Shown in pieces: positions 1 to 44,830 of a stretch of 64,000 bases of DNA; the first letter of the stretch is position 1, and each line of letters opens with the position of its first letter. The DNA lies in contig DQFO01000021.1 of the NCBI GenBank assembly GCA_003525075.1, positions 48,255-112,254 of the forward strand, given 5' to 3'. The stretch is from Clostridiales bacterium. Its GTDB lineage: Bacteria; Bacillota; Clostridia; TANB77; CAG-508. The notes below the pieces were generated by a model. That model made no database searches. It was not told the origin of the DNA and saw nothing but the letters and a program-made list of their open reading frames with translations. The translations under genes were made by a program, and so were the position numbers.

Positions 1-634
1 TTTTATCAATTATTTTTGCAGCCTTTACATTATTTTCATCATATCTTTCCTTTTGACTTTGAGACATATCATTAGTTTTTTGTGTTGATCTTGTTAGCCA
101 ATCTCTTATTGTATGAACATTTGAAGAAAGTAATTGTAAAGTATTTTCTGATACAACATTAGAACTTACAAATCCAGTTTGTGATAAATTGCTAAATTTT
201 GTTAATAAATCGTTTTTTCTTGTTGAAATCTTTTTCATATTAGTATTTGTTATTGGCGAATTGTTTGGAAATAAGTAATCATATGATGATGATTCTTCTA
301 TATGAAATGATGTCCATCTACTATCTGTTTTTGACATTTCAAATGAAATGTTTAACTGTATTTCCTCATAGCCTTCATTTGCATTTTGCGTAACCCAAGT
401 ATTATAATCAACAACAGAATTTATAACAGAAAGCATTTCATTTCCACGTATTGTTTTTCCATCATAATTTGTAAATTTCTTATTTAATTCGACAATTTGT
501 CTTAAGCTTAAATTGTCACTCTGTTGTTGATAATAATTAGAAATTTGATTATATCCTAATAACAACATTGATAATATTATAATTCCTATTAAAACACCAG
601 CTGCTATCAACAATGCTTTTGTTGCATTTTCCAT
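1..634 (-). CDS. membrane-anchored protein, 3'-truncated by the window edge. Begins with a hydrophobic segment (MENATKALLIAAGVLIGIIILSMLL...). Possibly a pseudopilin/minor-pilin-like component downstream of the Tad-like genes.
   Basis: Reverse-complement translation from the ATG at complement(632..634). An AGGAG RBS lies about 7 nt upstream. The frame stays open to position 1. No class-III signal motif is recognisable. Confidence 0.3.
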   Translation of the reverse strand, partial: MENATKALLIAAGVLIGIIILSMLLLGYNQISNYYQQQSDNLSLRQIVELNKKFTNYDGKTIRGNEMLSVINSVVDYNTWVTQNANEGYEEIQLNISFEMSKTDSRWTSFHIEESSSYDYLFPNNSPITNTNMKKISTRKNDLLTKFSNLSQTGFVSSNVVSENTLQLLSSNVHTIRDWLTRSTQKTNDMSQSQKERYDENNVKAAKIIDK

Positions 635-655
635 ATAATCAAACTCCTTTCTTTA

Positions 656-2722
656 TTATTGTAATCCTGCAAATGCACTTCCCATACTTGATAGACCAAT
701 AAATACTAATGGTATTATCAAATATCCAACGAATAAGCAAATCATTGGTGCAAAGCCTACAAATTTTCCTATTATTCCTTTTTTAGAAATAAATTGATCA
801 TTTGTTGCTTTACGTTTTTCTCTATGATAATCTTTATCTGCATCTAATTCATCAAATGCTTCTCTAATTGGTATTTTTTCTACTGCTGATTGTAAACTTT
901 CTACAATCCTAATCATATCATGATTGCTTACTGATTGTTTTAATTCCTCAAGTGCTTCCCAAGCACCTGCTTCATAGTTGTTTACACATCTTGCTATCGG
1001 CTCTTTGAAAATATTTGAATAACGTTCTAGCCATTCAAGGATCATTTCAACACTTATTCTTTCTATTTTCATAAGCATTAAAATAATTGTTTGGAATTGC
1101 ATTACTTCATTTTCCATTTCCATTTGTCTCATTTTCTTTTGGAATATCATTAACCAAACTGGAGCCATATATCCCATAACAGCTATTCCCATAGCAATTA
1201 ATTCTTCAAACCATTTCATTTGTTCTGAATTTATAATTTTTAATTTCTTCAAAATTCTTTCAGAGTCTGTTGTTAGGTTTTCGTCTGATTCTGTATAATA
1301 GTCTGATTTTATCATTGCTTTTTTAATATCATCTACTGTTACATCTAATTTTCCTTTAAATTTATTTAAGAAATAATTATCTTGTTCTGTTAAGTTTTCT
1401 GCTTTTTTCTTTTCTTTATCTGATAATGTTCCTAAAACTGTAGTTCTAGTTGTTGGCTCTGTATATACATAATTTATTGCTATTTTATGTAGCTGTGTTG
1501 TAAGAATTATTGTTGCCACAAAGCTTATAACTGCTAAAATAATTCTATTTACATATATCCATTCCATTTTTGATTTTGATGCTGAATCTTTTAATAATTG
1601 TTGCATCTTTTTGTAATCTTTTGTTCCCTTTTTAGGGATAAACATATTAACAATTTTTTTTACTAAAGGAATATTATACAATTTTTCTTGCCAAGGATGA
1701 TCTGTATGAGAAACTTCTGTTTGAACCCCTCCGTTATCTTTTAGCTTTCTTGTTAATATATAAGAAACAATTGTTATAACTACTATTATTATTTGGGCTA
1801 ATAGCCCCATCTTTCCATTATAAAACTCTCCTGTAAAAGAGAAGTTTGAAAGACACCAATTTTTTAATGGTTCTAGTAATAATACTGGTAATATTGATAT
1901 TATTGACAAACTTTGAAATACATAATTTAATTTATCTCTTTTTAAAATTTCAATTTGCATTTCTTGTGTAATATTATCTACGTTTTTCAAAAATAATGAT
2001 GAACCATCTTTGTCTTTTCTATCACCAAATTCCTTGGTCAAATATGATATACCAGCAAATTCTTTTAAATAACTATTTGGTGCTGTATCATAATATTTTT
2101 CTAGTTCTGTTTCTGGATCATCTGAAATTAATATTTCATAAATTTTTTCACCTTGTTTTGAAACATTTTTTTCATCATCCAAAGAAACTTGATATATAGC
2201 TTCTTCAACCATATTAAACTCATGATAAGCATGTCTAATTTCAGCGAAAAAGTCTATTTGTTCTTTTAATAATTTATTGTCAATTTTGTCAACCATTCCC
2301 TCTGTCATTGAATCTACAACAAACAATTCGAAGATTAACAAAATTGACATAAGTAATATATTTTGTTTTGTGATTATAATTGTTATAAATACAATAGGTA
2401 TAAGTATTAATATTGCATTCATTAAAATTTTTGCTGAATCTCTTCTTGTACTATATTCATCGTCAATATTTAAAATTTCAAGCCTTCTACGAAGTTTAAA
2501 TAAATATCTTTTGATGAAAGGTATTTTAATAAATGTTATATATAATCTCTGGTATAAAACATCCATTGAAAAGCCACTTGTTTTAGTTCCTTGTTGTAAC
2601 TTCTTTATTCTTGCATATTCTGATTTTCCCATTTGTTTTGCTAAAGCAAAATATGCAATTCCAGCAATTACTAATAAACCAATAGAACCAAATATTATAT
2701 ATTTTAGCACACTAGCATCCAT
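656..2722 (-). CDS. polytopic membrane protein, GspF/TadB-TadC-like platform protein (apparent two-repeat fusion, 688 aa)
   Basis: Cytoplasmic helical segments alternate with clusters of 2-3 TM helices, twice over. It sits immediately downstream of the CpaF-like ATPase, as tadB/tadC do in tad loci. The call rests on architecture and context, not on a clear motif. Confidence 0.45.
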   Translation of the reverse strand: MDASVLKYIIFGSIGLLVIAGIAYFALAKQMGKSEYARIKKLQQGTKTSGFSMDVLYQRLYITFIKIPFIKRYLFKLRRRLEILNIDDEYSTRRDSAKILMNAILILIPIVFITIIITKQNILLMSILLIFELFVVDSMTEGMVDKIDNKLLKEQIDFFAEIRHAYHEFNMVEEAIYQVSLDDEKNVSKQGEKIYEILISDDPETELEKYYDTAPNSYLKEFAGISYLTKEFGDRKDKDGSSLFLKNVDNITQEMQIEILKRDKLNYVFQSLSIISILPVLLLEPLKNWCLSNFSFTGEFYNGKMGLLAQIIIVVITIVSYILTRKLKDNGGVQTEVSHTDHPWQEKLYNIPLVKKIVNMFIPKKGTKDYKKMQQLLKDSASKSKMEWIYVNRIILAVISFVATIILTTQLHKIAINYVYTEPTTRTTVLGTLSDKEKKKAENLTEQDNYFLNKFKGKLDVTVDDIKKAMIKSDYYTESDENLTTDSERILKKLKIINSEQMKWFEELIAMGIAVMGYMAPVWLMIFQKKMRQMEMENEVMQFQTIILMLMKIERISVEMILEWLERYSNIFKEPIARCVNNYEAGAWEALEELKQSVSNHDMIRIVESLQSAVEKIPIREAFDELDADKDYHREKRKATNDQFISKKGIIGKFVGFAPMICLFVGYLIIPLVFIGLSSMGSAFAGLQ

Positions 2723-2751
2723 TTAATAACAACTCTCCTTTCATCTATGTT

Positions 2752-4641
2752 TTATACTTTTTTAGTTTTTCCCCAATATTTTTCAATAAATTTGTCAAAT
2801 TCAACTGCATCTGTTTCATCCATATTTGCTCTCATATCATGAATATTTTGATCTGTTATTTTATTTGTCAATTGATATTCTCCATCAACATATTCTAAAA
2901 CATTTTGATATGTATATAAATTTTGTTCTGTTACTTTTGAAAAATATGTTGTTGCATTTTCAAAGAATTTTGTAACTTTTGAATCCATATCATGTTCTTT
3001 TTTATATTCAAAGTCATAAGTCTTTGAATCTTTAACAGGTATACATTCTGTTACTCTCTCAATATATCTTCTACCTCTAAAGTCTTTTTGTAAATGTATA
3101 TCAAAATTTAATACTTGTACAACTTGTTCCTCAGCTGTTTTTTCATTTTTAAACACTCCTGCTCTTAACATTGAGTTTCTTAATGCTGTAACTAAATCTG
3201 GGAATGTTTTAGCATGGTGAGTAAATAATGTAAATTTGGAAGCAACCTGTGCTGATTGAATCATCCAAGATGCTACTGGGTCTGTTGCAACCTCACCGAT
3301 GATATTAACAGAACCATCTGTCTTTTTCTGAACGTCCAAACACTCTTGTCCAGAAATTGTATCAGTCTCACGCATTGATAAAATGTTTCTTGTTGGATAA
3401 ACTTTTCTTAAATGCAACTCGAATGCCATTTCAGTGATACGTAAGTTCATTGTTTCATAAATATTTTCAATCAATCCCATAAGTAGTGTTGTTTTACCAC
3501 AACCTTGTTCACCAGTTATTGATGTTATTCTTGCACCTTTTACAAGATATTTTAATAATTCAATTGCTTTTTCTTTTCCAGCCATATCTCCTGTCCATTG
3601 TTCAACAGTAGCACGTTTTACGTCGAACTTTCTTACGAAGAATGCCCATGTTTCTGACATACTTGGTCTTACAACAACAACACGAGATCCGTCTTTCATT
3701 TCATTTACTTTATAACCATTTGTGTCTGATAATTGTCCTGGGTTATTATATTTATAAATATTTTGACATACTCTTTTTAATTCTGCTTCTGTTCCAAATG
3801 ATAAAAATGCTAAACGAATTGATTTACCTTGGAAAAATATCCAAATACTATCACATGCTCTTGGAACTTTATGTTCAGATACTTGTTCAATATAATCTGT
3901 TGTTCCTGTTTGTGCAACTTGGCTTATAAAACTTTCTGGTAAACCAGATACACCACCAGATACACCATCTATATTCATATCTCTTATTTCGTCAATTGAA
4001 CTATATCCTTTATAATGTTGATATATTCTTTGAACAACAATTTCTAGTTTATCTTTAAATGATAATACTAATTTTTCTTTTTCATAAATATCTGAAATTT
4101 CATCTTCTGTTATTACATAAGATGGCTTACTTTCACCTTGAAGATATTTTAATGTTGCTAAATTATATCTTTTTATAAGTTCTGTTAATGCTTCATATCC
4201 AAATTCTTTTTTATACATATATATGATAATATCAAATTTGTCTTGTGCAGTTAACAATGATGGAACATCAAAAGGAATTGCCTTTGATATATTTGTTTCA
4301 TCAACACCATATTCCTTTGATAATAAATCTGATATTAATTCTTTTACATATCTTTTATCATTAACATCTCCATATGTACAACCTTTTAAGGCTTTCTTTA
4401 ATGCATATTTTTTATTTTTTCTTCTTTTTAATTCTTCTTCTGATAATCCTATATCATAAAGATTTATTTTTGTAATTTCATCAAGTCTCTTTTTTACATA
4501 ATCTCTCATTTTTTCAAGAGTATATGTTTTATCATCTTTCTCAATTTCTTGTACGACTTCTGCATTTTGTTTATTTTTAAGCCAAAATATTAATGCTACT
4601 CCACCAATAATCAAAACGACAATACACAATAAAATTGCCAT
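2752..4641 (-). CDS. CpaF/TadA-like type II/IV secretion-family ATPase with an N-terminal transmembrane anchor and a long N-terminal extension
   Basis: Walker A box ITGEQGCGKTTLL. EIRDMNIDGVSGGV is a VirB11/CpaF-like 'I-D-I-NG' motif. NIIGEVATD...FTLFTHHAKT resembles the His-box region of CpaF. Confidence 0.65.
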   Translation of the reverse strand: MAILLCIVVLIIGGVALIFWLKNKQNAEVVQEIEKDDKTYTLEKMRDYVKKRLDEITKINLYDIGLSEEELKRRKNKKYALKKALKGCTYGDVNDKRYVKELISDLLSKEYGVDETNISKAIPFDVPSLLTAQDKFDIIIYMYKKEFGYEALTELIKRYNLATLKYLQGESKPSYVITEDEISDIYEKEKLVLSFKDKLEIVVQRIYQHYKGYSSIDEIRDMNIDGVSGGVSGLPESFISQVAQTGTTDYIEQVSEHKVPRACDSIWIFFQGKSIRLAFLSFGTEAELKRVCQNIYKYNNPGQLSDTNGYKVNEMKDGSRVVVVRPSMSETWAFFVRKFDVKRATVEQWTGDMAGKEKAIELLKYLVKGARITSITGEQGCGKTTLLMGLIENIYETMNLRITEMAFELHLRKVYPTRNILSMRETDTISGQECLDVQKKTDGSVNIIGEVATDPVASWMIQSAQVASKFTLFTHHAKTFPDLVTALRNSMLRAGVFKNEKTAEEQVVQVLNFDIHLQKDFRGRRYIERVTECIPVKDSKTYDFEYKKEHDMDSKVTKFFENATTYFSKVTEQNLYTYQNVLEYVDGEYQLTNKITDQNIHDMRANMDETDAVEFDKFIEKYWGKTKKV

Positions 4642-4648
4642 CTTATTC

Positions 4649-5512
4649 TCACCTCATTCTCATTTGCAATTCTTTTATTTTTTCTATAATTTTTTCTACT
4701 AATTTATCAAGTTCTTTCATAAAAATATAATTTGAATCTGTTGTATCTTTTATTTTGCTTAGTCTATAAAATAAATCTACAACTCCTACTTCTTCAGCTG
4801 CTTCATATAATAAAATATTAAATGGAATAACTGATAATTCTTTTTTTTCTCTTAAATATTTTTGCAAATTACTTTTATTGTATTTTGAATAATGACTATA
4901 TTTGCCTATAACGATAATATTTTTTGGTTCTGCTACAATCGGATTATCCATTTTTAATTGTATATAGTAGTCTAAACTTCTTAATTTTTGACCTGCAATA
5001 TAAAGATTTATAGTAGCCATTTTTAAGATTTCATTTCTTACGCCCTCATCTAGTTCTCTACTTAAATCTACTAAAACCATATCATAGTATTGATTTGCTA
5101 CATTTAGTATTGCAGGATAAACTGCTGATATTGTTTTATAGTCTCGTAGATTTTCTTCTTTTGTCTTTGTAGGATTTTCCATATATCCATCTAGAACTTC
5201 TAATGTGTCTTTAAAAATAACATGTGTATAATCTGTTATATTTTCTGGTTCTATCTTATTACTTGCTATTAATCTAGATAATCCTTCAACACCATTCTCT
5301 ATTGCAATGCTTGATGATCTATCAGCCATAATTTGTTTTCTTACAGCATTTTCTTTCCAAAAGCAATTTTTTATTGTTGAATCATTATATGCTGCTGAAA
5401 CAATCAAAACTTTTAAGTTACGCTCGATAGCCATTTTTGTTGCAACAGCAACTGTTGATATTGAAACTCCTGATTGTTCTCTATCTGCATTCCAAAATGT
5501 TACAATTGACAT
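4649..5512 (-). CDS. ParA/MinD-like protein with a degenerate Walker A (TadZ/CpaE-like pseudo-ATPase)
   Basis: The N-terminus IVTFWNADREQSGVS aligns to a deviant Walker A that has lost the GK[ST]. YDMVLVDL is Walker-B-like. Position matches tadZ in tad operons. Confidence 0.4.
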   Translation of the reverse strand: MSIVTFWNADREQSGVSISTVAVATKMAIERNLKVLIVSAAYNDSTIKNCFWKENAVRKQIMADRSSSIAIENGVEGLSRLIASNKIEPENITDYTHVIFKDTLEVLDGYMENPTKTKEENLRDYKTISAVYPAILNVANQYYDMVLVDLSRELDEGVRNEILKMATINLYIAGQKLRSLDYYIQLKMDNPIVAEPKNIIVIGKYSHYSKYNKSNLQKYLREKKELSVIPFNILLYEAAEEVGVVDLFYRLSKIKDTTDSNYIFMKELDKLVEKIIEKIKELQMRMR

Positions 5513-5528
5513 CTTATTCTCTCCTTTT

Positions 5529-6215
5529 TTATATTTCCTTAGTCATTTTTCTAAGCATTTTTTCATCTAATCCACTACATAATTCTCTTACAATATATAC
5601 AATGTTTTCTCTATATTCATTACTTAAGTTTTTTAATTTTATACACTGCAATCTGTGGTTTTCCATGTGTACTGCTAAATCTCCGTTTTCTAATAAGAAG
5701 TATAATTTATTGTCTGTCCATTCTTCTTTTAATTCAAGTGTTAAATAATTAAAGTATTCATCTTCTTCTTTTAACATTTCTTTTGTAAAAAATAATCTTG
5801 TCATTTTTAATGGTAAATTTATTTCTTTTAGAAGTTCAATTCCTTTTCTTAGTGAATATCCATCAAATGATGTTACATAATATAATTTGTCAAAACTTAG
5901 AGCTTCAAAATCTCTAACTCCATCAAAATTATCAGTATCAAGAAATATATATTCATATTCGAATTCATTTTCAGTGTCAACACCTAAATAATGGGCTATT
6001 TGTTCTATATTTTCAAAACCTATAGCAACATCAATGTCTTCAAATGTTGTTACATAAGATACTGTAGGTAATATATTAGGAACTATATATTTTGCTTTTT
6101 GATCCTTTGTAGAATCTATGAATAAAACTTTTTTTCCATTTCTTGTTAATAATTTGGATATATCCAAAATTAGATCTGTTTTATCATATACCCCTATAAA
6201 TCCAACTTTCTTCAT
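5529..6215 (-). CDS. second ParA/MinD-like protein with a degenerate P-loop (TadZ-like)
   Basis: Start taken as MKKVGFIGVYDK at position 6215, which has an AAAGGA RBS 8 nt upstream. The listed ORF extends 14 codons further. Overall MinD-fold layout but no canonical KGGxGKT. Confidence 0.4.
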   Translation of the reverse strand: MKKVGFIGVYDKTDLILDISKLLTRNGKKVLFIDSTKDQKAKYIVPNILPTVSYVTTFEDIDVAIGFENIEQIAHYLGVDTENEFEYEYIFLDTDNFDGVRDFEALSFDKLYYVTSFDGYSLRKGIELLKEINLPLKMTRLFFTKEMLKEEDEYFNYLTLELKEEWTDNKLYFLLENGDLAVHMENHRLQCIKLKNLSNEYRENIVYIVRELCSGLDEKMLRKMTKEI

Positions 6216-6279
6216 GTTATTATCCTTTCTATATAATAATTCATATAGTAAGGGCATAATATGCCCTTACTATAACTAA

Positions 6280-7383
6280 TTATTCTCCTAGTGAATCTAA
6301 ATATTTTTGTCTTGCATCTTGTGCATTAGAAATACTTTCTTCCATTGAATTTTTTACATTTGTATCATAGTCAGCTCCAATTTGTTGTTCTAAGTATCTT
6401 CTTGCATTTGTTGCTGATGTTGTATATCTCTTCTTTAATTCTTCTACTGCACTTGATACTATATTTGGATTTGATACATTTCCGTTTGAATCTGTTATTA
6501 ATGCTGTTACAGAATCATTTGGTCTATATGTTGGTACAGCTGCATCTTGTATTCCTGCTTCTTTGTATTTTGTTGCATATAATTTTGCACCATTAATTCC
6601 GGCAGCTTCTACTATTGCACTAGACATTGCTAAAATTTCATCTTCTCTTAATGTCATTCTTATTGTATCTGCTAAACGTCCTTCTGCTCCCATTGGTATT
6701 TCAACTATTTTTTTTGAAACAACTATGTAATTTTGTCCATTTGGTAGCATTAATCTTATATCAACATAATCTCCATCTGTTAAATCTACTGGTAAAGATA
6801 CAACATTATATTCCTCTACTCTTACATCATTTGAAACAATATTATCAGTTTGTTGAACCATATTTGGTGTTACTACTGTATTTTTTTTCATATCTAATTT
6901 TGCTACTACTGGTACATTGTTTAATTCAATATATTGTTTTGTTGTTGATGTAGGTTTTATATAATAATTTTCCGTTGTGTCTTCTTTGTAAACTCTTACT
7001 ATGCTATCTGATCCATTAGCATCTGTTTGTGTATAATAAAGACCTTCTTCATCTCTATTTAACATAGTTCCATCTTTTGTTTGCATATACCAACTTTCAA
7101 TAACTGATATTACTGATGTTGCATTTGCTGGTATTGTTGTTTGATCTACTGCTTTTAGGGCAAACATATCTTCTGTTATTTCTTCTCCTGATTTTACGTC
7201 TTGACTTAATACGTAAACCTTCTTTCTATTTGCATTTAATGTAGAAATCTCTGTATTCAATTTATTTACATAAAACAATAATAATGCTATTACAATTCCT
7301 GTTAATAATAGTGTTATTACTACTCCTAATATAAATGATGTTCTTGCTTTTTTTTGCATTGGGTTCATTGCCATTTTTTCCAC
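6280..7383 (-). CDS. CpaB/RcpC-like Flp-pilus assembly protein (N-terminal TM plus SAF-like domain) with a C-terminal extension
   Basis: An N-terminal TM segment is followed by VYVLSQDVKSGEEITEDMFALKAVD..IPANA. This matches the SAF/CpaB pattern of a hydrophobic beta-strand, charged turn and '..P..A'. GTG start with an AGGGAAGG RBS. First gene of the minus-strand cluster. Confidence 0.5.
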   Translation of the reverse strand: MEKMAMNPMQKKARTSFILGVVITLLLTGIVIALLLFYVNKLNTEISTLNANRKKVYVLSQDVKSGEEITEDMFALKAVDQTTIPANATSVISVIESWYMQTKDGTMLNRDEEGLYYTQTDANGSDSIVRVYKEDTTENYYIKPTSTTKQYIELNNVPVVAKLDMKKNTVVTPNMVQQTDNIVSNDVRVEEYNVVSLPVDLTDGDYVDIRLMLPNGQNYIVVSKKIVEIPMGAEGRLADTIRMTLREDEILAMSSAIVEAAGINGAKLYATKYKEAGIQDAAVPTYRPNDSVTALITDSNGNVSNPNIVSSAVEELKKRYTTSATNARRYLEQQIGADYDTNVKNSMEESISNAQDARQKYLDSLGE

Positions 7384-7529
7384 GTTCCTTCCCTATTTTT
7401 TAATTTATTTCTATTTTATTTTACAATATTTTTATACTAAAATCAACAAAATATTTCTATTGTAATATAAAATTAATGCTTTTGTAATATTAATGTAATA
7501 TTTCTTTAAAGCCTTTAGTTTACTACTAT

Positions 7530-8408: not shown

Positions 8409-8614
8409 ATCTTTCTCCTATCTTTTGTTTTAATTTTCAAACATATTTAATTTTAATAAATTTATCTGTTTTTTTCAAGATATTTTTGTAATTTATTTGT
8501 TTTTTCCAAAAACTTCTTGTTTATTTTATTAAAAATTGCACATTCTATTCTTAGAAAAGTTTTTACTTTTCAAAAAGAAATTAAATGATGTTATATATGA
8601 CGGAGGTGAATACA

Positions 8615-8815
8615 ATGGCAAATTCAAACAGCAATAAGAAATTAGTACCAGAAGCAATGAGCGCTTTAGACAAATTCAAATATGAAGTAGCTTCTGAAAT
8701 TGGTGTTACTTTAAAAGATGGTTATAATGGTGATATATCAGCAAAAGATGCTGGTAAAATAGGTGGAAACATGGTTAGAAAAATGATCCAACAAGTTGAA
8801 AACAACATGAAATAG
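8615..8815 (+). CDS. small acid-soluble spore protein, alpha/beta type
   Basis: LVPEAMSALDKFKYEVASEIGV...GDISAKDAGKIGGNMVRKMI is the SASP alpha/beta signature. GGAGGTG RBS at 8602-8608. The listed ORF begins at an upstream in-frame ATG (8585). Confidence 0.85.
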   Translation: MANSNSNKKLVPEAMSALDKFKYEVASEIGVTLKDGYNGDISAKDAGKIGGNMVRKMIQQVENNMK

Positions 8816-8900: not shown

Positions 8901-8932
8901 AAGGCAGGAGTTGTGCTCCTGCCTTTATTTTA
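8901..8932. terminator. bidirectional Rho-independent terminator between sspA (+) and the cpsB-like gene (-)
   Basis: Perfect 10-bp stem aaggcaggag/ctcctgcctt with a 5-nt loop, followed by a T-rich tract. Confidence 0.7.
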
Positions 8933-9638
8933 TAATATCTTCATTATTTAAAACTTTTTGAGGATTAATTTCTGTAAATTCAATAAATTCTTCGTCTGAA
9001 ATAACTTTTTTTAATTTTTTAATAATTTTAGGAATTTTATTATATACTTGTTCTGGTTTATGGACATCTGATCCAAAAAAACTAATCAAATTATTTTTCA
9101 ATAAAATTTTTAATGTTTTTTTAGCTTTGCCACCATACATTCCTATTATACTACCAAAATTTGCTTGAAAAAGAGCTCCCATTTCTTCTAATTCAAATAA
9201 ATAATCTGGATTTTCTTGAACAAATGGATATCTTTCTGGATGAGCAATAATTGGTATATATCCATTTTCAATTAATCTATATATAACTTCTTTATCATTC
9301 ATAGGTTTTGTATTAATTAATGGAAATTCAAAAAGAACATATCTTGTATTATTTATAGATGATGCCTGTCCATTTTTTAATAAATCTATCATATTATTAG
9401 TAATATATATTTCATTTCCAAGGTATAATTCAATTCCATCAACAGAATCTTGTACCTCTTTTAATAATCGTTTTCTTTCTTGCTCATTACATTCATAATA
9501 ATTTTCCATATAATGTGATGTTGATATAATTTTGGTAAAACCTACATTTTTTGCTTCATTTACCATATAAATTGATTGTTCTAAATTTCTAGAACCATCA
9601 TCAATTCCTGGTAATATATGTGAATGAAAATCTATCAT
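8925..9638 (-). CDS. CpsB/YwqE-type PHP-domain protein-tyrosine phosphatase
   Basis: MIDFHSHILPGIDDGS N-terminus and conserved His/Asp pattern of Mn-dependent CpsB phosphatases. Lies downstream of the BY-kinase gene. Confidence 0.85.
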   Translation of the reverse strand: MIDFHSHILPGIDDGSRNLEQSIYMVNEAKNVGFTKIISTSHYMENYYECNEQERKRLLKEVQDSVDGIELYLGNEIYITNNMIDLLKNGQASSINNTRYVLFEFPLINTKPMNDKEVIYRLIENGYIPIIAHPERYPFVQENPDYLFELEEMGALFQANFGSIIGMYGGKAKKTLKILLKNNLISFFGSDVHKPEQVYNKIPKIIKKLKKVISDEEFIEFTEINPQKVLNNEDIIK

Positions 9639-9659
9639 AAAATCCTTCCTTTAAATCAT

Positions 9660-10583
9660 TTAAAAGTCTTTCTTTTCTTCCTCTATTATTTTTTTCCAAT
9701 TATCTTTATCAATATTATTTCTTAACGCTTTTGGAACTTGTGTATTTTCTTGTCTTGTATTTTGTGAATTTCTATTGTTTGTTTCACTATGATTTCCATT
9801 TCTTTTTGAATTTTGTGATAAAGCATTTTGCGTTCTTTGTTGCAATTTTCTTCTTTCTGCTTCATAATCTGGTTGATTATTTTTTTGAACTGTTACATTT
9901 GAAGAATAATAATATGTTTGATTATATTTTTTACTGCTTACTGGAATTTTATTATAAACAACTCCTGCAACATTTCCACCAACATTTCTTACGTCTTTTA
10001 TTACTCTTTCTAAATCATCTTTTCTAGTTTGATTATGTGCTGATACTATTAGTGTAGAATCAACTATTCTTGATAATATAACAGAATCTGTTACAAGTTT
10101 TGATGGTGTTCCATCAATTATAACTAAATCAACTTGATTTTTTAATTGTTCTAATAAATTTCTCATTTGACGTCTTACAAGTAATTCTGATGGGTTTGGT
10201 GGAATATTTCCAGCTGGAATTATATATAAATTATTTACATCTGTTTGTTTCAAATATTTATCTATATTTACAGATTCTTGATTTTCATAATATCCTGACA
10301 AATAATTTGATAATCCCGGTCTTGGTTCAACTCCAAATATAGAATACAATCTTCCTTTTCTCATATCTGCATCTATTAATGCTACTCTTTTCCCTGCTTG
10401 TGCAAATGTTACTGCTAAATTTGAAGCAACCCAACTTTTGCCTTCTCCTGGCATTGTAGATGTAACTAACAAGCTTCTTAATCTTCTATTAGAATTCATA
10501 AATTGTATATTTGTTCTTAATGTTCTAAATGTTTCAGAAACAGGTGATTTTGGATCTAGATGTGTAACTAATTCTTTTCTCAT
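9660..10583 (-). CDS. CpsD/YwqD-type BY tyrosine kinase (cytoplasmic ATPase module), long low-complexity C-terminal tail
   Basis: Walker A' and A region SLLVTSTMPGEGKSWVASNLAVTFAQAGKRVALIDADMRKG. Walker B VIIDGTP. Y-rich tail YNQTYYYSS. Confidence 0.85.
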   Translation of the reverse strand: MRKELVTHLDPKSPVSETFRTLRTNIQFMNSNRRLRSLLVTSTMPGEGKSWVASNLAVTFAQAGKRVALIDADMRKGRLYSIFGVEPRPGLSNYLSGYYENQESVNIDKYLKQTDVNNLYIIPAGNIPPNPSELLVRRQMRNLLEQLKNQVDLVIIDGTPSKLVTDSVILSRIVDSTLIVSAHNQTRKDDLERVIKDVRNVGGNVAGVVYNKIPVSSKKYNQTYYYSSNVTVQKNNQPDYEAERRKLQQRTQNALSQNSKRNGNHSETNNRNSQNTRQENTQVPKALRNNIDKDNWKKIIEEEKKDF

Positions 10584-11299
10584 TATCTTTTTCCTCCTCT
10601 TCTACCTTTTGACTTTGTTTCTGCTAAATCATATATTGGAATACTAGCTAATACTGTAACTCCTGATATTTTTTCAATGTCTTGTGCAGATTTTATTGTT
10701 GTATCTAACATATTTAGTATTAATACATATCCAAATGCAATTACTATACCAATTACAGCGAATATTAAAACATCTTTTTTATGATTAATATTATATGGTT
10801 CATTTTCAACTTCTGCTTCATCATAAATATATAAGTTTTCTATTTTATAATATTGTTTTACATTTTCTATAAATACTTTTGCTGTTTCATTAGCAATTTT
10901 TTGAGCTACTACAGGATCATCATTTTTTACTATTATATCTATCATGTCTGCATTATCTCTTGCTTTTACACTAATACTTTTTTTAACATCATCTTCTTGA
11001 AGATTCATTCCTAAATTTTTTATTACTTCTCTGATTATTTTATTTCCACTAACCATATCACTATATGTAGAAACAAGTTTTGAGTTTAATGTAAGGTCAT
11101 TTGTAGTTATTCCATTTGCATTAGATTGGCTTGATGAATTTGTTGCTAATAAAAGACTTGTTTTTGATTGATATTTTGGTTTTACAAATCCAACAGTATA
11201 AATTATTCCTAAAACTATAAAAATTGCTGTTATTAATAAAATTTGTATTCTTTTTTCCCAAAATATTTGAATTAGCTCTTTTAAATCTAGTTCTTCCAT
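10583..11299 (-). CDS. Wzz/CpsC/YwqC-type polysaccharide chain-length determinant (kinase modulator)
   Basis: Two TM helices flank a periplasmic domain. A C-terminal basic tail follows the second TM. Its stop overlaps the kinase start. Confidence 0.8.
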   Translation of the reverse strand: MEELDLKELIQIFWEKRIQILLITAIFIVLGIIYTVGFVKPKYQSKTSLLLATNSSSQSNANGITTNDLTLNSKLVSTYSDMVSGNKIIREVIKNLGMNLQEDDVKKSISVKARDNADMIDIIVKNDDPVVAQKIANETAKVFIENVKQYYKIENLYIYDEAEVENEPYNINHKKDVLIFAVIGIVIAFGYVLILNMLDTTIKSAQDIEKISGVTVLASIPIYDLAETKSKGRRGGKR

Positions 11300-11334
11300 T
11301 TTTTTGTTTTAATCCCTTCTTTTTATGTTTCAAA

Positions 11335-12174
11335 TTAATTATTTTGATTTTCTTCTTTTTTCTGTGAAAGTATAATAATTGCATAAATTACTACTAATAT
11401 AAAGTAAACTATAATAAATTTTCCTGCAATTATATTTATTTTACTTAATATGTCTTTGATTATTGTTACTACAATATTTGAAAATGCGTCATTAAAAATT
11501 TTTATTCCATCTATATTTACTTTTGATTTTATTACAGTTGTTATTGCTAATTGCATAACTGCTGAAGATAAAACAGCTGATTCTGTCCAAAATAATAGTT
11601 TTAAAATATCTTTAACATTTAATGCAATTACTCCAATAATACTTATTATTATTGCAATTATCAATATGTTTTGAACTTTTGTTATTTTTTGTGTTATTTT
11701 ACTATATTTTTCATTTATTGTGTTTTCATAGCTTGTACTTATTATTGTGTCTTTATATGATTGACAGATATGTTCTACAAATTCATCAATAGCTTTACTA
11801 TTACTTGATGTTCTAACGTTTTCTTTATCAATATTAGAATTTAAGTTATTTGATATTTCTGATGTATCAATCTTTTCATTTGTTCCTTCGTAAATATTTG
11901 ATAATATTATATTAATATCATTTTTTATTTTATCTTCTGTACATATATTTTTTATTACTTCTTCGTCAAGTCCTGATTGTCCTATGTAATTTTCAAAACC
12001 TGATTCTACAAGTTTATATGTTTCAGAATAAAAATTATTGTTTTCCATTTGTTCTAATACATATTCTTTGTTAAATATTGTTTTAAAAACAACACTTTTA
12101 ACTCCTATAAATGTGAAACTTAATGCAATAACTAGAACAAATATAAAATTTAAAATTTTCTTTCCTACTTTCAT
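11335..12174 (-). CDS. membrane protein of unknown function (N-terminal TM, extracellular domain, about 3 C-terminal TM helices)
   Basis: Hydropathy only. No recognisable family. Confidence 0.35.
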   Translation of the reverse strand: MKVGKKILNFIFVLVIALSFTFIGVKSVVFKTIFNKEYVLEQMENNNFYSETYKLVESGFENYIGQSGLDEEVIKNICTEDKIKNDINIILSNIYEGTNEKIDTSEISNNLNSNIDKENVRTSSNSKAIDEFVEHICQSYKDTIISTSYENTINEKYSKITQKITKVQNILIIAIIISIIGVIALNVKDILKLLFWTESAVLSSAVMQLAITTVIKSKVNIDGIKIFNDAFSNIVVTIIKDILSKINIIAGKFIIVYFILVVIYAIIILSQKKEENQNN

Positions 12175-12188
12175 CTTTTTATTCCTTT

Positions 12189-12815
12189 CTATTTTTCTAA
12201 TTTGGCATATACTACATATCTTTGTGTTGCATATCCAACATTGTTAAATGGATAACAAGTATACACCATTAGTATTTCTTCATCTCTTTGTATTGGAACT
12301 TTGTCCAAATCTGTTTCTTTTATTAATTGCATATCATAAATTTTGTAGTTATATTCTCCATATGTTGTTGTTACCTTTATTTCATCTCCAATTTGCAATT
12401 CAGAGAATCTTCTAAATACTTTTTTGGAATTGTGTCCCATGTATAATATAGAACCACCTTCACCTGGAAAATAACTTCCGCTTGAGTGTCCTACACCTTT
12501 CTTTAGTATTTCTAGTGTATCTCCAAAGTACACTGGTAAATTTGCTCCTATTCTCGGAATTTCAATTGTTGCATATTGGGTTCCATATTCTGGATAACTA
12601 TCAAGTGATTTTTTTTCTTCATCTATTGTTATTGGTTGTTGTTCTTTGTCTTTATTTATATTTATTGAGACTTTATTTGCTAACATAAATATATTTTCTA
12701 TTTCTGTCCCCCAACATATTTTTATAGCAAGAAATACTCCTATCACTATAAATATTGCAATTAAAATTGTTCCTATAGTTGATTTACATGCTTTTACCAC
12801 TTTTTCTTTTTGCAT
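12189..12815 (-). CDS. sortase (class A/D-like transpeptidase)
   Basis: N-terminal TM anchor. Catalytic His (LYMGHN), TLxTC-type Cys (LMVYTCYPF), and Arg 13 residues downstream (TQRYVV). Confidence 0.75.
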   Translation of the reverse strand: MQKEKVVKACKSTIGTILIAIFIVIGVFLAIKICWGTEIENIFMLANKVSININKDKEQQPITIDEEKKSLDSYPEYGTQYATIEIPRIGANLPVYFGDTLEILKKGVGHSSGSYFPGEGGSILYMGHNSKKVFRRFSELQIGDEIKVTTTYGEYNYKIYDMQLIKETDLDKVPIQRDEEILMVYTCYPFNNVGYATQRYVVYAKLEK

Positions 12816-12896
12816 ATGTAATACTCCTTTTTAATTCATAAAAAAATTATAACATTTTAGAACGTTTTATGCAAGAGTTTTTGCGTTCAAAATAAA

Positions 12897-12935
12897 AAAA
12901 TCTCCTGATTATTCAGAAGATTTTTATTTTACTAA
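12897..12935. terminator. bidirectional hairpin terminator downstream of the LAYTG-protein gene
   Basis: 9-bp stem with one mismatch (atctcctga/tcagaagat), flanked by A and T runs. Confidence 0.5.
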
Positions 12936-13462
12936 GCATTTACAATTCTTTTTCTTGCAACTACTGCTGATACAGCAACTAATGCTACTACTGTTGTAGC
13001 TAAAACTACTACGTTTACAACATTTCCTGTATAAGCTAATTTTCCATTAGTATTTGAAACTGTTTCTACTAATTTTCCATCATTGTTGTAAATAGCAACT
13101 GATTTTTTGTTGAAAACTAATTTTAAGTCAACAATTTTTGCTGCTTCTGTTGCAATTGATTTTACTTCATTTTTTTGAGCCTTTGTTAATTTGTCATAAT
13201 TTGTTACTCCAGCTTTTTCCATTACAGCTATTGCTTCATCAGCTTTTGTTAATATTTCATTTGCTTGAGCATCTGTTACTGGATTTTCTTTTAAATATCT
13301 TTCGATTTTTACTTTATCTGCTGAAGTCATTCCATATTTTGATCCTTTTGCATATAATTCATCAGCTAATGTTGATGATGTAGCAGCATTTACGCCTGTT
13401 GCTAAAGCCATTATTGTTATTATAGCTAATAAAGCTATTGTTAATGTCTTTTTCATTTTCAT
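12932..13462 (-). CDS. secreted, sortase-anchored protein with a C-terminal LAYTG sorting signal. Mostly helical, function unknown.
   Basis: Signal peptide. The C-terminus carries LAYTG, a hydrophobic stretch and a basic tail (ARKR). Confidence 0.6.
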   Translation of the reverse strand: MKMKKTLTIALLAIITIMALATGVNAATSSTLADELYAKGSKYGMTSADKVKIERYLKENPVTDAQANEILTKADEAIAVMEKAGVTNYDKLTKAQKNEVKSIATEAAKIVDLKLVFNKKSVAIYNNDGKLVETVSNTNGKLAYTGNVVNVVVLATTVVALVAVSAVVARKRIVNA

Positions 13463-13540
13463 TCTCCCTTTCTTCTTTTAAAATTTTCTTCTTCATTATA
13501 GCATTATATGTTTTTTTATGCAATACTTTTTTTGATTTTT

Positions 13541-14371
13541 TTATTTAATTTCGATATTTTTATATCTTATTAAACTTATTGTTCCAATAGCAACTGCTAC
13601 TAATACAATTAATGCTACTGTTGTTGCACCTGTTTTTGGTAATTCTTTTTCTTGTGATACTGTTGTGTCTTGTGTTGTTTTTTCTGTTGTATTATCTGTT
13701 TTTGCTGTATTTGTTATTATTTCTAATTCATCTTTTTTGTTATCATCTTTCGTTGTTTCTGTATTTTTTTGATCATCTTTCGTTGTTTCTGTATTTTTTT
13801 GTTCATCTTTTGTTTCTTCTGTTTTGTCTGCCTTTGGAACAACAGCTACTTGTGTTACTAATTTAGGTGTGTCATATTCATTTTTTCCATCTGTAAGTTC
13901 TTCAACTTTTAAAACAACTCCTGTTGTTGTTACATTTTCCAATCCTTCTTTGAATGTAAGTGTTATTTCTGCAACATCTTCACCATCTTTTGGTGTTCTA
14001 TTTGCTTCTACAAGAAGTCTACCAGATTCTTCACTAAATTGTACTGTATAACCGTTTAAAGCTTTTATATCATTTTGTGTTAATTGATTAAAATATACAT
14101 CACTATATTCAAAAATTCCCTTAAACATACATATTCCACTTGTATCTATTGACTCTAATTTATCATATCCTATTACTACTTTTACCTCTTTTGTTACATC
14201 TTCTACTTCAACTTTTTCTGTTGTCTTTAGTGTTATACTTGAGTCTTTTGAAGTTGATTCACTTGTTGTTTGTGTTGTTTGTTCTGTACTTTTTGTTTCG
14301 TCTGCAAATACATTAACTCCTACACTTATTAGCATCATTGCTATAATTATACTTGCTAATATTTTTTTCAT
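13541..14371 (-). CDS. LPKTG cell-wall-anchored protein carrying a cohesin-like domain and a Thr/Lys/Asp-rich repeat linker
   Basis: Signal peptide. GICMFKGIFEYSDVYFN and VQFSEESGRLL...TPKDGEDVAEITLTFK resemble the cohesin motifs GIANCDFVYSYDPNVLE and FLFAEDSG...ITKDGVFATIVAKVK. The C-terminus carries LPKTG, a TM segment and RYK. Confidence 0.6.
   Translation of the reverse strand: MKKILASIIIAMMLISVGVNVFADETKSTEQTTQTTSESTSKDSSITLKTTEKVEVEDVTKEVKVVIGYDKLESIDTSGICMFKGIFEYSDVYFNQLTQNDIKALNGYTVQFSEESGRLLVEANRTPKDGEDVAEITLTFKEGLENVTTTGVVLKVEELTDGKNEYDTPKLVTQVAVVPKADKTEETKDEQKNTETTKDDQKNTETTKDDNKKDELEIITNTAKTDNTTEKTTQDTTVSQEKELPKTGATTVALIVLVAVAIGTISLIRYKNIEIK
13741..13830. repeat. tandem ~30-bp direct repeats (about 3 copies, the third degenerate) inside the cohesin-protein gene. 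They encode TKD(E/D)QKNTET repeats.
   Basis: gatcatctttcgttgtttctgtattttttt occurs twice in tandem, followed by a diverged third copy. Confidence 0.8.
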
Positions 14372-14537: not shown

Positions 14538-15197
14538 TTATAATATCTCACAATCATTTAGTATTTTTTCAATACTTTCATTTATTTCTAAATCTGGATT
14601 TTCTTTATAATAAATATATTTTCCATATTTTATTTGTTTGTTATATTCTTTGTTATGATCTCTTATTTTTTCAGCTCTTTTTATTGCATTTATAATATCT
14701 TCCAATGTAATTTGTTCAACTACTCTCTTAAAGTTTTTTTCTTCTTTATATTCATCAAGACTTTTAAAATCTTCATCAAATATTTCATTTATATATTTTA
14801 AATATTGTTTTTTATCTGTTAATGGTCCTTTTAAATCTTTTTTGTGCAAAATTATCCAAAGTTCAAATGTAAAATTACTATATCCTAATTTATATTTTAA
14901 ACTATTATTAATTTTCGAAACTTCTTTCATATCATCTAAAATCTTATGAAATTTTTTTACATCATCTTCTGAATCACTTTCATAATCACATAAATGATAT
15001 ACCTCTTCTTCAGTTATATTTGCTAATGTTTTGGCATATCTTGTTGGCATTAATTTTTTATGTTTTAATTTTACTGTACAAGTTGCTTTAGAACAGTTAT
15101 TAATTAATTTTTGTAAATAGTCTAAATACCAGCCTTCTGTATCTCCTTCAACAGAAAAATAATAATTTTTATTTGTTTTTAATTTTTTTGCACACAT
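14538..15197 (-). CDS. RloB-family protein (AbiLii-like, OLD/Toprim-related putative nuclease)
   Basis: The N-terminus YYFSVEGDTEGWYL matches the RloB motif hhhVCEGxxTExxYh. Immediately downstream of the AAA_21 ATPase gene with a 9-bp gap. Confidence 0.6.
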   Translation of the reverse strand: MCAKKLKTNKNYYFSVEGDTEGWYLDYLQKLINNCSKATCTVKLKHKKLMPTRYAKTLANITEEEVYHLCDYESDSEDDVKKFHKILDDMKEVSKINNSLKYKLGYSNFTFELWIILHKKDLKGPLTDKKQYLKYINEIFDEDFKSLDEYKEEKNFKRVVEQITLEDIINAIKRAEKIRDHNKEYNKQIKYGKYIYYKENPDLEINESIEKILNDCEIL

Positions 15198-15206
15198 TTA
15201 TATTTA

Positions 15207-16541
15207 TTACTTCCTTTCTTGATTCATATATTCTTCAAATATATCTGAAAAGTCAACATCAGTGATTGCACCATATTTGTTTATAAAATAATTTTTTAAA
15301 TAATTTTCTCCATTTCTTACTCCATTTTTTCCACTTGTTCCAAAATCTGATAATGAATATAATATACTTTCTTTTTCTTCTTTTTCTACAAATTTTATTT
15401 CATCTCTTCTAAAAAGATTTTTATTTAAGAAAATTGGATTATGTGTATTAAATATTAATTGAGCTCCATTTTTGTTTATTTCATCATTATGGAAAATTTT
15501 TATAAAACTCATTATTATCATTGGATGCAAAGACGCATCTAACTCATCTACTAATAATGTTGCACCTCTTTTCATTGTTGCCATCATAAGTGGAAAAATA
15601 TCTAATAATCTAAGTGTTCCAAATGACTCAAAAAACTCTGCTGGAACAACTATACCTTTTTCATCTATAGTTTTTATTACAGATACTGGAAATATTAAGT
15701 CTTTTTTATCTGTTATTGGATATGCTATTTTTTCAGATGTTAATCCAATTTCTTTTACAGCTTCATTTATTTGTGGATTAGAGAATAATTTTTTATTTGA
15801 ATTTTTTATATCTATTCTTGATTCTAAGTTTGGTGCATAATGTATTTTATCTGCATGATATATAATTCTTAGTTTATCTTGAAACCAATTTGTTATAATT
15901 TCATAAATCTTTTTACTATATAATGTTTTAAACATTACATTTAATAGTAATTCTTGTGGCTCTATATTTGAATTTATAATATCTTTTGCCACTTCTTCAT
16001 GAAAGTTTTCTATTAATAATTCTTTTTCTTTTAAATATTCTAAATTTTCTATTTGAATTTTTTCATTTCTTATATAAATATTATTTCCATCGATTTTAAG
16101 TTTTTCTTCTAATATTTTTCTTTTATCCTTTTCTTTAGATAATAATTTTTCTGTTAAAAAAGTTATACTATATTCAATTATCATATTATTAGTTAAAAAT
16201 TTTATATAAAAATATGTTGGTTCATTTTCTTTGCTGTCTATATGTGGTATAAAATCTAATTTTTCTGTTGCTATATTAATACTTGTTAAATCATCTGCAT
16301 CTTTTATATTTCCTCTTAATACGATTGCTTTAAATACTTGTAATCCACCTATTAAGTTTGTTTTTCCTGATGAGTTTGGTCCATATATAACAGATGATGA
16401 TAATGCTTTCTCTTCTTTGTTATTTGCTTTTTCTTTTAACAAACTATATTCTAAGTCTTTTATTTTTTGAGCTGGCGTCATTTTAAATTCAACTAAATTT
16501 CTAAATGATTTGAAATTTTTCATTTTAAATTCTAATAACAT
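15207..16541 (-). CDS. AAA_21/ABC-like ATPase (AbiLi/RloA-like)
   Basis: N-terminus MKNFKSFRNL. Walker A GPNSSGKTNL. Walker B and D-loop LLVDELDASLHP. Confidence 0.65.
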   Translation of the reverse strand: MLLEFKMKNFKSFRNLVEFKMTPAQKIKDLEYSLLKEKANNKEEKALSSSVIYGPNSSGKTNLIGGLQVFKAIVLRGNIKDADDLTSINIATEKLDFIPHIDSKENEPTYFYIKFLTNNMIIEYSITFLTEKLLSKEKDKRKILEEKLKIDGNNIYIRNEKIQIENLEYLKEKELLIENFHEEVAKDIINSNIEPQELLLNVMFKTLYSKKIYEIITNWFQDKLRIIYHADKIHYAPNLESRIDIKNSNKKLFSNPQINEAVKEIGLTSEKIAYPITDKKDLIFPVSVIKTIDEKGIVVPAEFFESFGTLRLLDIFPLMMATMKRGATLLVDELDASLHPMIIMSFIKIFHNDEINKNGAQLIFNTHNPIFLNKNLFRRDEIKFVEKEEKESILYSLSDFGTSGKNGVRNGENYLKNYFINKYGAITDVDFSDIFEEYMNQERK

Positions 16542-16723: not shown

Positions 16724-17860
16724 TTATTCAAAAATATCCTCTGTTATTATATCCCATAATAATTGCATTAAAACAGCTGTATCTCCTAAACACAAATAAT
16801 CAGAACTTTCATTATTAATGTGTGCAATATTATTTCTCATATTTAATTCGTTTGGATCAAATATTAAATTAAACAACTTTGTATATTGTTTTTTTATTAA
16901 AGAATTCGCATATGGTGAAACTATAACACTTCCAAGTGTTAATTTATTTTTTATCTTTTTATTATCTTTTTTATTAATATATTCATGCAAAATCAATAGT
17001 TTTATATCTTCATCTTCTTCATTGATAATACGATATTTTATAAACATTTTATAGATATTTGCTCTAATAAATTTTTCACTTGCAAATATTGTTTTATCTC
17101 CTTTTTCAGTAATAATATTATAATATTGTTTTTCTTCATCAGTTAATTTTATATTTTCTTTTTCAATTTTATCTTTTAATTCTTTCATTAAGTTTTTTAG
17201 GATTTTTGAATCTAATTGAATTATAAGAAATCTTTCTATTAATGTTGGTAATATGAATGCTGTTCCATATGCATGTTCATCTCTTATACATTCAATTTTA
17301 TTATTTGTTAATGGCTCTGCCATTGGAAATACTACACCTCTATATTCAATCATTCTTATAATTTGTAAATTTTGTTGTTTTTTAGGTGGATTTTCAAATA
17401 TTCCTTTATATTCATTTCCTTTTAATGTTTCAAAATATTCGTTTAATGCTCTTATATATATTTCATTAAATTTTATTGTTGCTTCATTTGTAATTATTGG
17501 TACTCTTTCTCTATATTCTTTTGCTATTAATTTTTTATGATAATTTATACATATATTTCCTAAATAATAAACTAAATCATTTATTTTTATTTTCTTTTTT
17601 ATAAGTTCGTCTTTTTCTTCTTTTGTTTCAAAGTGTCCTAATGGTTCTGGACATATTGTGTTTTTTGCATCATATTTTAGTATTTTATAAAATTCATCTA
17701 ATATTTCTAATTTTATATTTATTTCTTCGTTCTTACTTTTGGCTTTTATTAGTTTTTCTACTTTTTCATCAATGTATTTTAACATGGGTTCTGGATTGCT
17801 TAAATGTAATTGCATATTATTTAACATTACATATTCTTTTTGATATAAATATTCTTCCAT
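16724..17860 (-). CDS. hypothetical protein with a C-terminal HEPN-like Rx4H motif (possible Abi-type RNase)
   Basis: The C-terminus NMRNNIAHINNES fits the R[NHQ]xxxH HEPN motif. No other family signature. Has its own AGGAGG RBS. Confidence 0.35.
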   Translation of the reverse strand: MEEYLYQKEYVMLNNMQLHLSNPEPMLKYIDEKVEKLIKAKSKNEEINIKLEILDEFYKILKYDAKNTICPEPLGHFETKEEKDELIKKKIKINDLVYYLGNICINYHKKLIAKEYRERVPIITNEATIKFNEIYIRALNEYFETLKGNEYKGIFENPPKKQQNLQIIRMIEYRGVVFPMAEPLTNNKIECIRDEHAYGTAFILPTLIERFLIIQLDSKILKNLMKELKDKIEKENIKLTDEEKQYYNIITEKGDKTIFASEKFIRANIYKMFIKYRIINEEDEDIKLLILHEYINKKDNKKIKNKLTLGSVIVSPYANSLIKKQYTKLFNLIFDPNELNMRNNIAHINNESSDYLCLGDTAVLMQLLWDIITEDIFE

Positions 17861-17875
17861 ATTTTTCCTCCTATT

Positions 17876-17903
17876 TTAAAAGATGCAACATTATTTTGTT
17901 GCA
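17876..17903 (-). terminator. hairpin (terminator/attenuator) between the GH39-like gene and the HEPN-like gene
   Basis: Perfect 10-bp stem aagatgcaac/gttgcatctt with an 8-nt loop. It overlaps the GH gene stop and sits directly upstream of the RBS of the next gene. Confidence 0.5.
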
Positions 17904-44480: not shown

Positions 44481-44830
44481 GGGGATGTAATGGTTTCGAC
44501 ATTATATCTGAAGCATGAATAGCGAGTAGTGGATTCTCGTTTGCCACTATAAAAACGGGAAATTAAATATAAACGCTGATAATACAGAATTAGCATACGC
44601 TGCTTAGTTGCAACGTCGCCTCTAAAAGTATCCCCACATATTTTTAGTTGGTGTCATTTAGTGGGAAACAAAGCTATTTTTTCTATGGAAATAGTGGGTA
44701 TTTAATAGATATATTTTTTAATCGCTTGTTTGTTTGTGGTTATTAGATGAATATTAAAAATAAACTGCACTCGGAGAAGTTTGTGTGAATCTTATAGTGG
44801 ACAGGGGTTCGACTCCCCTCATCTCCACCA
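44481..44830 (+). ncRNA. ssrA: tmRNA (transfer-messenger RNA)
   Basis: The 5' end GGGGATGTAATGGTTTCGACA and the 3' end GGACAGGGGTTCGACTCCCCTCATCTCCACCA form a tRNA-Ala-like acceptor/T-arm with encoded CCA. The internal tag ORF ends ...GCATACGCTGCTTAG (..AYAA*). Confidence 0.85.

Follow-up and report, generated by a model that had tools for sequence, protein, structure and literature searches.

A 12-gene operon for a probable divergent Tad-type filament machine in an uncultured gut clostridial lineage

The operon and its continuation past the window edge

The DNA analysed (the window) was a stretch of 64,000 nucleotides from a Clostridiales bacterium of the TANB77 lineage (CAG-508; assembly GCA_003525075.1, contig DQFO01000021.1, positions 48,255 to 112,254). 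Positions 1-7383 carry six minus-strand open reading frames (ORFs), all in the same direction and 7-29 nt apart (Table 1); the G+C content of the DNA is about 26%. The six tightly spaced genes that an earlier note, made from the sequence alone, had described are real, and they belong to one operon. The predicted products are a CpaB-like protein (gene 1), two small MinD/ParA-like proteins (genes 2 and 3), a CpaF-like ATPase (gene 4), a polytopic platform protein (gene 5) and the first of several pilin-like proteins (gene 6), which together are probably parts of a divergent Tad-type filament machine.

Table 1. Features of the operon within the window
Feature	Positions	Strand	Size	Remarks
Gene 1	6280-7374	-	364 aa from ATG 7374	ORF reaches GTG 7383 (367 aa)
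Gene 2	5529-6215	-	228 aa	Listed ORF 5529-6257, 242 aa
Gene 3	4649-5512	-	287 aa	
Gene 4	2752-4641	-	629 aa	Putative CpaF/TadA-like secretion ATPase
Gene 5	656-2722	-	688 aa	Putative polytopic inner-membrane platform protein
Gene 6	1-634	-	211 of 297 codons	Cut at window edge; N-terminus MENATKALLIAAGVLIGIIILS
Upstream spacer of the operon	7375-7529	-		AT-rich; presumed promoter region; no credible small ORF
Hairpin	6244-6274	-	14 bp, perfect	GC-rich; between gene 1 and gene 2

The start of gene 1 was placed at ATG 7374 because gene callers and orthologues use that codon. Gene 2 truly starts at ATG 6215, behind the Shine-Dalgarno sequence GAAAGGA; the ATG at 6257 falls in the loop of the hairpin. 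A hairpin was present at the same spot in loci L005-L011, L015-L019 and L022 of close relatives, with stem sequences that differ by compensating changes and minimum free energies of -16 to -24 kcal/mol. In more distant loci, a spacer of 19-25 nt is all that separates genes 1 and 2. The hairpin may be an intra-operon attenuator or mRNA stabiliser, and may set how much CpaB-like protein is made relative to the other parts of the machine. Counted from the GTG, the spacer upstream of gene 1 (7384-7529) is 146 bp long, not 147 bp as noted earlier; the statement that it lacks a small ORF holds for credible ones, the only ORFs there being of 22 and 28 aa on the plus strand, overlapping the gene start. 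A promoter scan of the spacer gave only weak sigma-70-like matches, which were rarer than in shuffled sequence.

More than 1,000 metagenomic contigs, up to 1.62 Mb in length, carry an identical 629-aa ATPase sequence, and four of these (L001-L004) extend the locus past the window edge. There the 688-aa gene is followed by genes for proteins of 297, 167, 141, 142, 240, 179 and 600 aa, and then by SpoIVB and a tRNA synthetase. The whole operon has 12 genes, and the window holds its assembly-machinery part and the start of gene 6. The initial homology search with the ATPase returned near-identical sequences only, and a contig search with a narrower alignment returned only relatives at 61-85% identity. 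Genes 1-11 were found together in 74-85 of 85 related loci (gene 1 in 74, gene 2 in 75), all from metagenome-assembled genomes of uncultured gut Clostridia such as CAG:575 and CAG:389. The neighbourhood was constant in the TANB77 loci examined, which are chromosomal with a HAD hydrolase upstream and SpoIVB downstream. Evidence of synteny in distant taxa consists of L085, a metagenomic contig of 46% G+C with the same gene order, and of two plasmids described below.

The cluster has already been described. Kim et al. (2024, Nat Commun 15:10726; PMC11680825) reported a 12-gene pilus cluster in TANB77 (genes 927-938 of CAG-245 sp000435175), present in 122 of 129 TANB77 species, and annotated it from predicted structures, with structural homology to CpaB, TadZ and CpaE. 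Their Table 1 lists 927 as CpaB (358 aa, one transmembrane (TM) helix), 928 as TadZ (231 aa), 929 as CpaE (280 aa), 930 as TadA/CpaF (640 aa, one TM helix), 931 as a protein of 693 aa with 8 TM helices whose halves were TadC and then TadB by Foldseek, 932-937 as pilin-like with no homology found, and 938 as a protein of 621 aa whose N-terminus resembles TadE/PilV. Recombinant 938 activates dendritic cells via TLR4. A prepilin peptidase or leader is not mentioned.

Compared by order, sizes and topology, the two clusters agree: the first five products have 364/228/287/629/688 aa here and 358/231/280/640/693 aa in the published cluster, and both have a one-TM ATPase, a platform of about 690 aa with about 8 TM helices and several successive single-TM pilin-like genes. 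The source organisms of both are uncultured gut Clostridia, and their genomes are small (contigs up to 1.62 Mb). The core of the earlier note's reading, a divergent Tad-type machine of a Gram-positive bacterium, is supported by the present analysis and amounts to the published annotation. The clusters differ in the first pilin-like gene (297 aa here, 165 aa published) and in the last gene. The clade formed by this species and its closest relatives has no orthologue of 'pilin 938', the TLR4-tested single-TM protein of about 620 aa, whereas 57 other loci do. At its position, eight loci of this clade, the species' own L003 among them, carry a 600-aa polytopic protein. In L003 its gene lies at 17758-19560, just past the left edge of the window; the product has about 13 TM helices and a soluble C-terminal domain, gave no Pfam match and could be a GT-C-type glycosyltransferase. 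This replacement of 938 goes beyond the published description, as do the invariant, leaderless-looking N-termini of the pilin-like proteins, the lack of a nearby A24 peptidase and the copies on Bacillales plasmids.

ATPase, platform and partner proteins

Gene 4 is, as judged from its profile matches and motifs, a membrane-anchored CpaF-like secretion ATPase. CpaF was the sole family found at E <= 0.01 in a PDB search (8rkd, E 1.6e-7, residues 270-537). In NCBIfam the best match was TIGR03819 (TadA, E 2e-10), with ComGA matching weakly (E 2e-4), and Pfam T2SSE scored 18.8 bits, under its cut-off of 24.9. The Walker A motif (GEQGCGKT, residue 377), the Walker B/catalytic Glu motif (IIGEV) and the His box (THHA, residue 474) are intact. 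Residues 1-19 form a strong N-terminal TM helix, retained by the ATPase relatives examined with the exception of the annotated Thermobacillus copy. The CpaF-like ATPase with an N-terminal TM anchor that the earlier note had read here was therefore confirmed, but not its N-terminal extension of about 300 aa: about 268 residues precede the ATPase core, against about 173 in Caulobacter CpaF, so the true extension is about 95 aa, TM helix included.

Gene 5 encodes a protein with about 7-8 TM helices, and the members of its family fall into at least 1,113 clusters at 50% identity (E <= 1e-3), nearly all of about 680 aa. In a confident AlphaFold model, the GspF-type cytoplasmic domains of SpoIIIAB, PilC and EpsF were the top matches among 48,164 PDB chains, and the predicted structure contains the GspF/PilC-type cytoplasmic helical bundle; a Foldseek search of the full-length model against the PDB gave noise only. 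Pfam, NCBIfam and PHROGs scans gave no match of any kind, GspF/T2SSF (PF00482) included, PDB searches by sequence gave none with either the single sequence or a 62-sequence profile, and 0 of 62 diverse homologues, scanned singly for a transitive link, matched T2SSF. The earlier note had held that lack of a GspF profile match for the 688-aa protein would refute its reading. At the sequence level this is what was found, and the assignment was retained on the predicted fold and the annotation of Kim et al. On the fold evidence, gene 5 would be the counterpart of a fused TadC+TadB platform.

The rank of SpoIIIAB as top fold match of the platform, together with the neighbouring spoIVB, would fit a sporulation-linked envelope channel related to SpoIIIA. 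PilC and EpsF rank beside SpoIIIAB, so the match points to the general GspF-type fold, and the plasmid copies stand in no sporulation context. A sporulation channel was rejected as extremely improbable.

Gene 1 encodes a bitopic protein (TM helix at residues 15-33) that matched Pfam SAF above the gathering cut-off (24.2 bits against 21, E 5e-5) and TIGR03177 CpaB below it (24.9 bits against 71, E 1.1e-5); the match is therefore at the level of the domain, not of the equivalog. To this extent the SAF-domain, CpaB-like first gene proposed earlier was upheld. Genes 2 and 3 gave no match in Pfam, NCBIfam and PHROGs scans, and family profiles suggest that both are weak MinD/ParA (TadZ/CpaE-like) relatives. 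The best PDB match of the gene 2 profile was MinD (4v02, E 0.17), aligned at the deviant Walker A and the Walker B regions, and that of the gene 3 profile was a ParA-family protein (3ea0, E 1e-3), followed by Get3, Soj and CooC. The two profiles align with each other at Walker B (E 4e-4). Both proteins had been described as lacking the Walker A lysine. This is so for the 287-aa protein in this species only (SGVS, where orthologues mostly have TGKT); the 228-aa protein has a degenerate P-loop, GxYDKTD, but keeps the lysine, its family reading YDKTD.

Pilin-like proteins

The products of genes 6, 7, 9, 10 and 11 have at their N-termini a short polar tip and then about 20 hydrophobic residues. 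MENATKALL is the start of the 297-, 167- and 142-aa proteins; the 240-aa protein starts with MENAVDSLKIAFGVL and the 179-aa protein with MEESTTDIIGIFAAV, and Shine-Dalgarno sequences are correctly spaced from the ATGs. Residues M1, E2, N3, A4, K6 and A7 are invariant over 60-76 sequences whose overall identity is 30-40%. The start MENA[S/T]KAL is common to three paralogues and kept across species, and the families of genes 10 and 11 start with MENA[A/V][D/E]ALKMA and M[G/S/E]D[S/T]LITIIAI, respectively. The earlier note saw no obvious pilin and thought that one might be encoded elsewhere. Five pilin-like genes lie directly downstream in the same operon, and the missing pilin was an artefact of the window edge, because the series begins with the truncated gene at 1-634; the full-length product of that gene on L001-L004, which the note had proposed to examine, is pilin-like and has 297 aa.

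AlphaFold modelling of the pilin-like proteins was based on database homologues. In the AF2 model of the gene 9 product (pLDDT 80), a helix at residues 2-40 is predicted to be followed by two helices and four strands that form a small alpha/beta head; compared with solved pilins and pseudopilins, the head did not reach likeness to them. Because gene 9 is duplicated in relatives (three copies in L079), its product of about 140 aa is likely the major subunit. Pfam, NCBIfam and PHROGs scans of the pilin-like proteins were empty, and none of the proteins has a G/XXXXEY or TadE motif. An ORF for an Flp pilin (40-80 aa, leader ending in G, mature XXXXEY) was absent from the cluster and the upstream spacer, the pilin-like proteins being of 140-300 aa. 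Of the proteins encoded in the window, one alone is small and polytopic (56372-57109), and it is an M50 peptidase. The earlier finding of neither an Flp-type pilin nor a prepilin peptidase in the window holds.

These absences would also fit a canonical Tad/Flp pilus with its Flp pilin and TadV genes at another genomic site, in which case the proteins encoded downstream would be only minor pseudopilins of TadE/TadF type. No Flp-like ORF or A24 peptidase was found in the window or the related loci, and some type IV filament loci (MSH) borrow the peptidase of another system (PMC6668835). The operon, however, has five pilin-like genes of its own, present in 74-85 loci, and one of these is amplified as a major subunit might be; none of the proteins has the expected motifs, and the plasmid copies carry the same set with no Flp or TadV annotated in or beside them. 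We regard a remote Flp/TadV pair as improbable.

Five distinct pilin-like proteins of minor-pilin size, like GspG-K or ComGC-GG, are also what a short pseudopilus would have, either as a secretion piston resembling that of a type II secretion system or as a ComG-like DNA-uptake fibre through the thick wall. The weak ComGA match of the ATPase and the lack of a retraction ATPase are in line with this, and the ComG competence pilus likewise combines one ATPase, one platform and five pilin-like proteins in a single-membrane bacterium. ComG pilins, however, have a ComC-cleaved leader and E5, and ComG has no CpaB- or TadZ-like partners, which are Tad-specific. The ATPase here matches ComGA and GspE less well than CpaF/TadA, ComGA far less so. 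ComEA/ComEC and obvious secreted cargo were absent from the called genes of the loci, and the plasmid contexts are rich in adhesins. A pseudopilus is thus unlikely, and a Tad-type filament is preferred.

Plasmid-borne relatives and interpretation

Full-length homologues of genes 1-5 were found in the same order on the Thermobacillus plasmid pTHECO01 (L086) and the Lysinibacillus plasmid pBsph (L088), and the Thermobacillus copy also has full-length homologues of genes 9 and 11. Identities to the pTHECO01 and pBsph copies were 56% and 39% for the ATPases and 36% and 28% for the platforms. Because full-length homologous clusters occur on large plasmids of Bacillales and Clostridium, the system extends beyond TANB77. 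On the large Bacillales plasmids (L086, L088 and L089), S-layer-homology (SLH) and DUF5704 proteins come after the cluster, joined on pTHECO01 by GGDEF/HD and giant FN3 proteins; the pBsph cluster is preceded by a 483-aa protein whose N-terminus, judged by eye, resembles a receiver domain. In the literature on pXO16/pBsph Tad-like loci no description was found.

A location on plasmids raises the possibility that a mating or conjugation apparatus, for example a pilus that stabilises mating pairs, has become a permanent part of the TANB77 chromosome. The best NCBIfam match of the ATPase is named 'TadA family conjugal transfer-associated ATPase', a replication-relaxation gene lies near the pTHECO01 cluster, and pBsph-type plasmids are conjugative (PMC13239906). 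This lead is weakened because pBsph is reported to have its own, separate type IV secretion system. The TANB77 cluster, moreover, is chromosomal, keeps the same neighbours throughout the loci examined and occurs in about 95% of species, and no relaxase, coupling protein or VirB4 adjoins it. A conjugation apparatus is accordingly very unlikely.

The cluster shares with Tad/Flp (type IVc) systems such as Caulobacter Cpa and Aggregatibacter Tad a CpaF-type ATPase, a SAF CpaB/RcpC-like protein, putative TadZ/CpaE-like proteins, a GspF-fold platform and several pilin-like genes, all in one operon. It differs from them in its single fused 688-aa platform, which is invisible to T2SSF profiles, in its membrane-anchored ATPase and two small TadZ-like proteins, and in the lack of an Flp pilin, a TadE/F motif and TadV. 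It also has no secretin or TadD, as expected for a monoderm. Its subunits have 140-300 aa and start with MENASKAL, where those of Tad/Flp systems have a leader ending in G followed by XXXXEY. Also comparable are the tad-like loci of C. kluyveri, C. cellulolyticum, C. bolteae and D. hafniense, in which Imam et al. (2011; PMC3244431) found no prepilin motif. They too are clostridial and Tad-like, lack a recognisable prepilin signal peptide and are distant from other tad genes, but they have recognisable tadC and tadV, whereas neither is recognisable by sequence here and no peptidase is present in or near the cluster.

We consider it likely that the 12-gene operon encodes a divergent Tad-type (type IVc-like) filament machine of a single-membrane Clostridia bacterium. 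In such a machine the hexameric CpaF-like ATPase, tethered by its own N-terminal helix, would turn the single 688-aa platform that replaces the TadB/TadC pair. The platform would lift the pilin-like subunits (genes 6, 7, 9, 10 and 11) from the membrane and stack them into a fibre via their hydrophobic N-terminal helices. The bitopic SAF/CpaB-like protein would form an envelope ring or conduit, and the two degenerate MinD/ParA-like proteins may scaffold or position the machine. Its role is most likely adhesion or surface interaction; the SLH, DUF5704, giant FN3 and GGDEF/HD proteins that follow the plasmid copies provide an adhesion context. That a filament is produced, the identity of the major subunit, the adhesive role and the way in which the subunits mature are inferences.

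Several results weigh against this reading. Sequence profiles connect neither the platform nor the pilin-like proteins with T2SSF, Flp, TadE or any pilin family. By hhalign, no internal repeat was detected between the halves of gene 5, and alignment of its profile with Rhizobium TadB and TadC was not significant, these single-sequence targets being weak. Of the double-GspF platform proposed in the earlier note, the GspF-type fold is thus predicted, but neither a profile match nor a repeat was found. The MinD/ParA assignments depend on E-values of 1e-3 and 0.17. The N-termini of the pilin-like proteins contain no class III signal peptide (G/A at -1, then E5), and no cleavage site yields E/D at +5. 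A TadV/A24 prepilin peptidase was absent from the operon and the 64-kb window, and a crude motif scan of related loci (1.8 Mb) found no polytopic GxGD-K ORF within 10 kb of the cluster. The organisms are uncultured, and no filament has been observed.

More tentatively, and with the odds somewhat against it, the subunits may lack a cleavable leader altogether. In that case the mature proteins would begin with the invariant M-E-N-A-S/T-K-A-L, E2 and K6 would take over from E5 and the N-terminal amine, and this type IV filament machine would need no prepilin peptidase. With its membrane-anchored ATPase and fused platform, it would represent a separate, Bacillota-wide branch of the type IV filament superfamily that profile surveys have overlooked. 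In the literature on leaderless or peptidase-independent pilins no description was found.

The following features were observed around the operon. A small acid-soluble spore protein gene lies upstream at 8585-8815 (+) and spoIVB directly downstream (L003 19615-20823); with these two genes flanking the cluster, the lineage is probably a spore former. Genes at 8925-14371 (-) encode a CpsB-like phosphatase, a tyrosine-kinase-like ParA/CbiA protein, a Wzz chain-length protein and a sortase (12189-12815), followed at 12932-14371 (-) by two signal-peptide proteins without a Pfam match, which may be sortase substrates. At 14538-16541 (-), an RloB-like protein (219 aa) adjoins an AAA_21/AbiEii-type ATPase (444 aa), a typical OLD/Rlo-type defence or toxin pair. 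The 1,042-aa protein encoded at 17891-21019 (-) carries a type I dockerin domain at its C-terminus (E 6e-8), suggesting that surface assembly in this gut bacterium with a small genome involves cohesin-dockerin pairing. Between about 21 and 44 kb, a long series of genes on the minus strand has, by reading alone, the appearance of a polysaccharide biosynthesis locus, and a tmRNA gene (tag ADNTELAYAA) lies at 44481-44830 (+). A large serine recombinase (Resolvase and Recombinase domains) at 61344-63125 (-) adjoins tRNA-Thr at 63710-63785 (-), and the GC skew changes sign at 58-62 kb; the recombinase/tRNA-Thr region may be an integrated element.

Few members of the gut microbiome correlate as consistently as TANB77 with the response to checkpoint immunotherapy, and published work credits a protein of the cluster with part of the effect; knowing what the machine builds therefore has practical weight. 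Beyond the published description, the remaining interest attaches to subunits that look leaderless, to a cluster in which no peptidase is visible, to the unusual ATPase and platform, and to the plasmid-borne homologues. For pilus biology, the question is whether a type IV filament may be built from subunits without a leader or a prepilin peptidase, and a membrane-tethered CpaF with a single-chain TadB/C platform bears on the rotary model of assembly. The plasmid clusters of cultivable Lysinibacillus, Paenibacillus and Thermobacillus allow the tests that the uncultured TANB77 do not.

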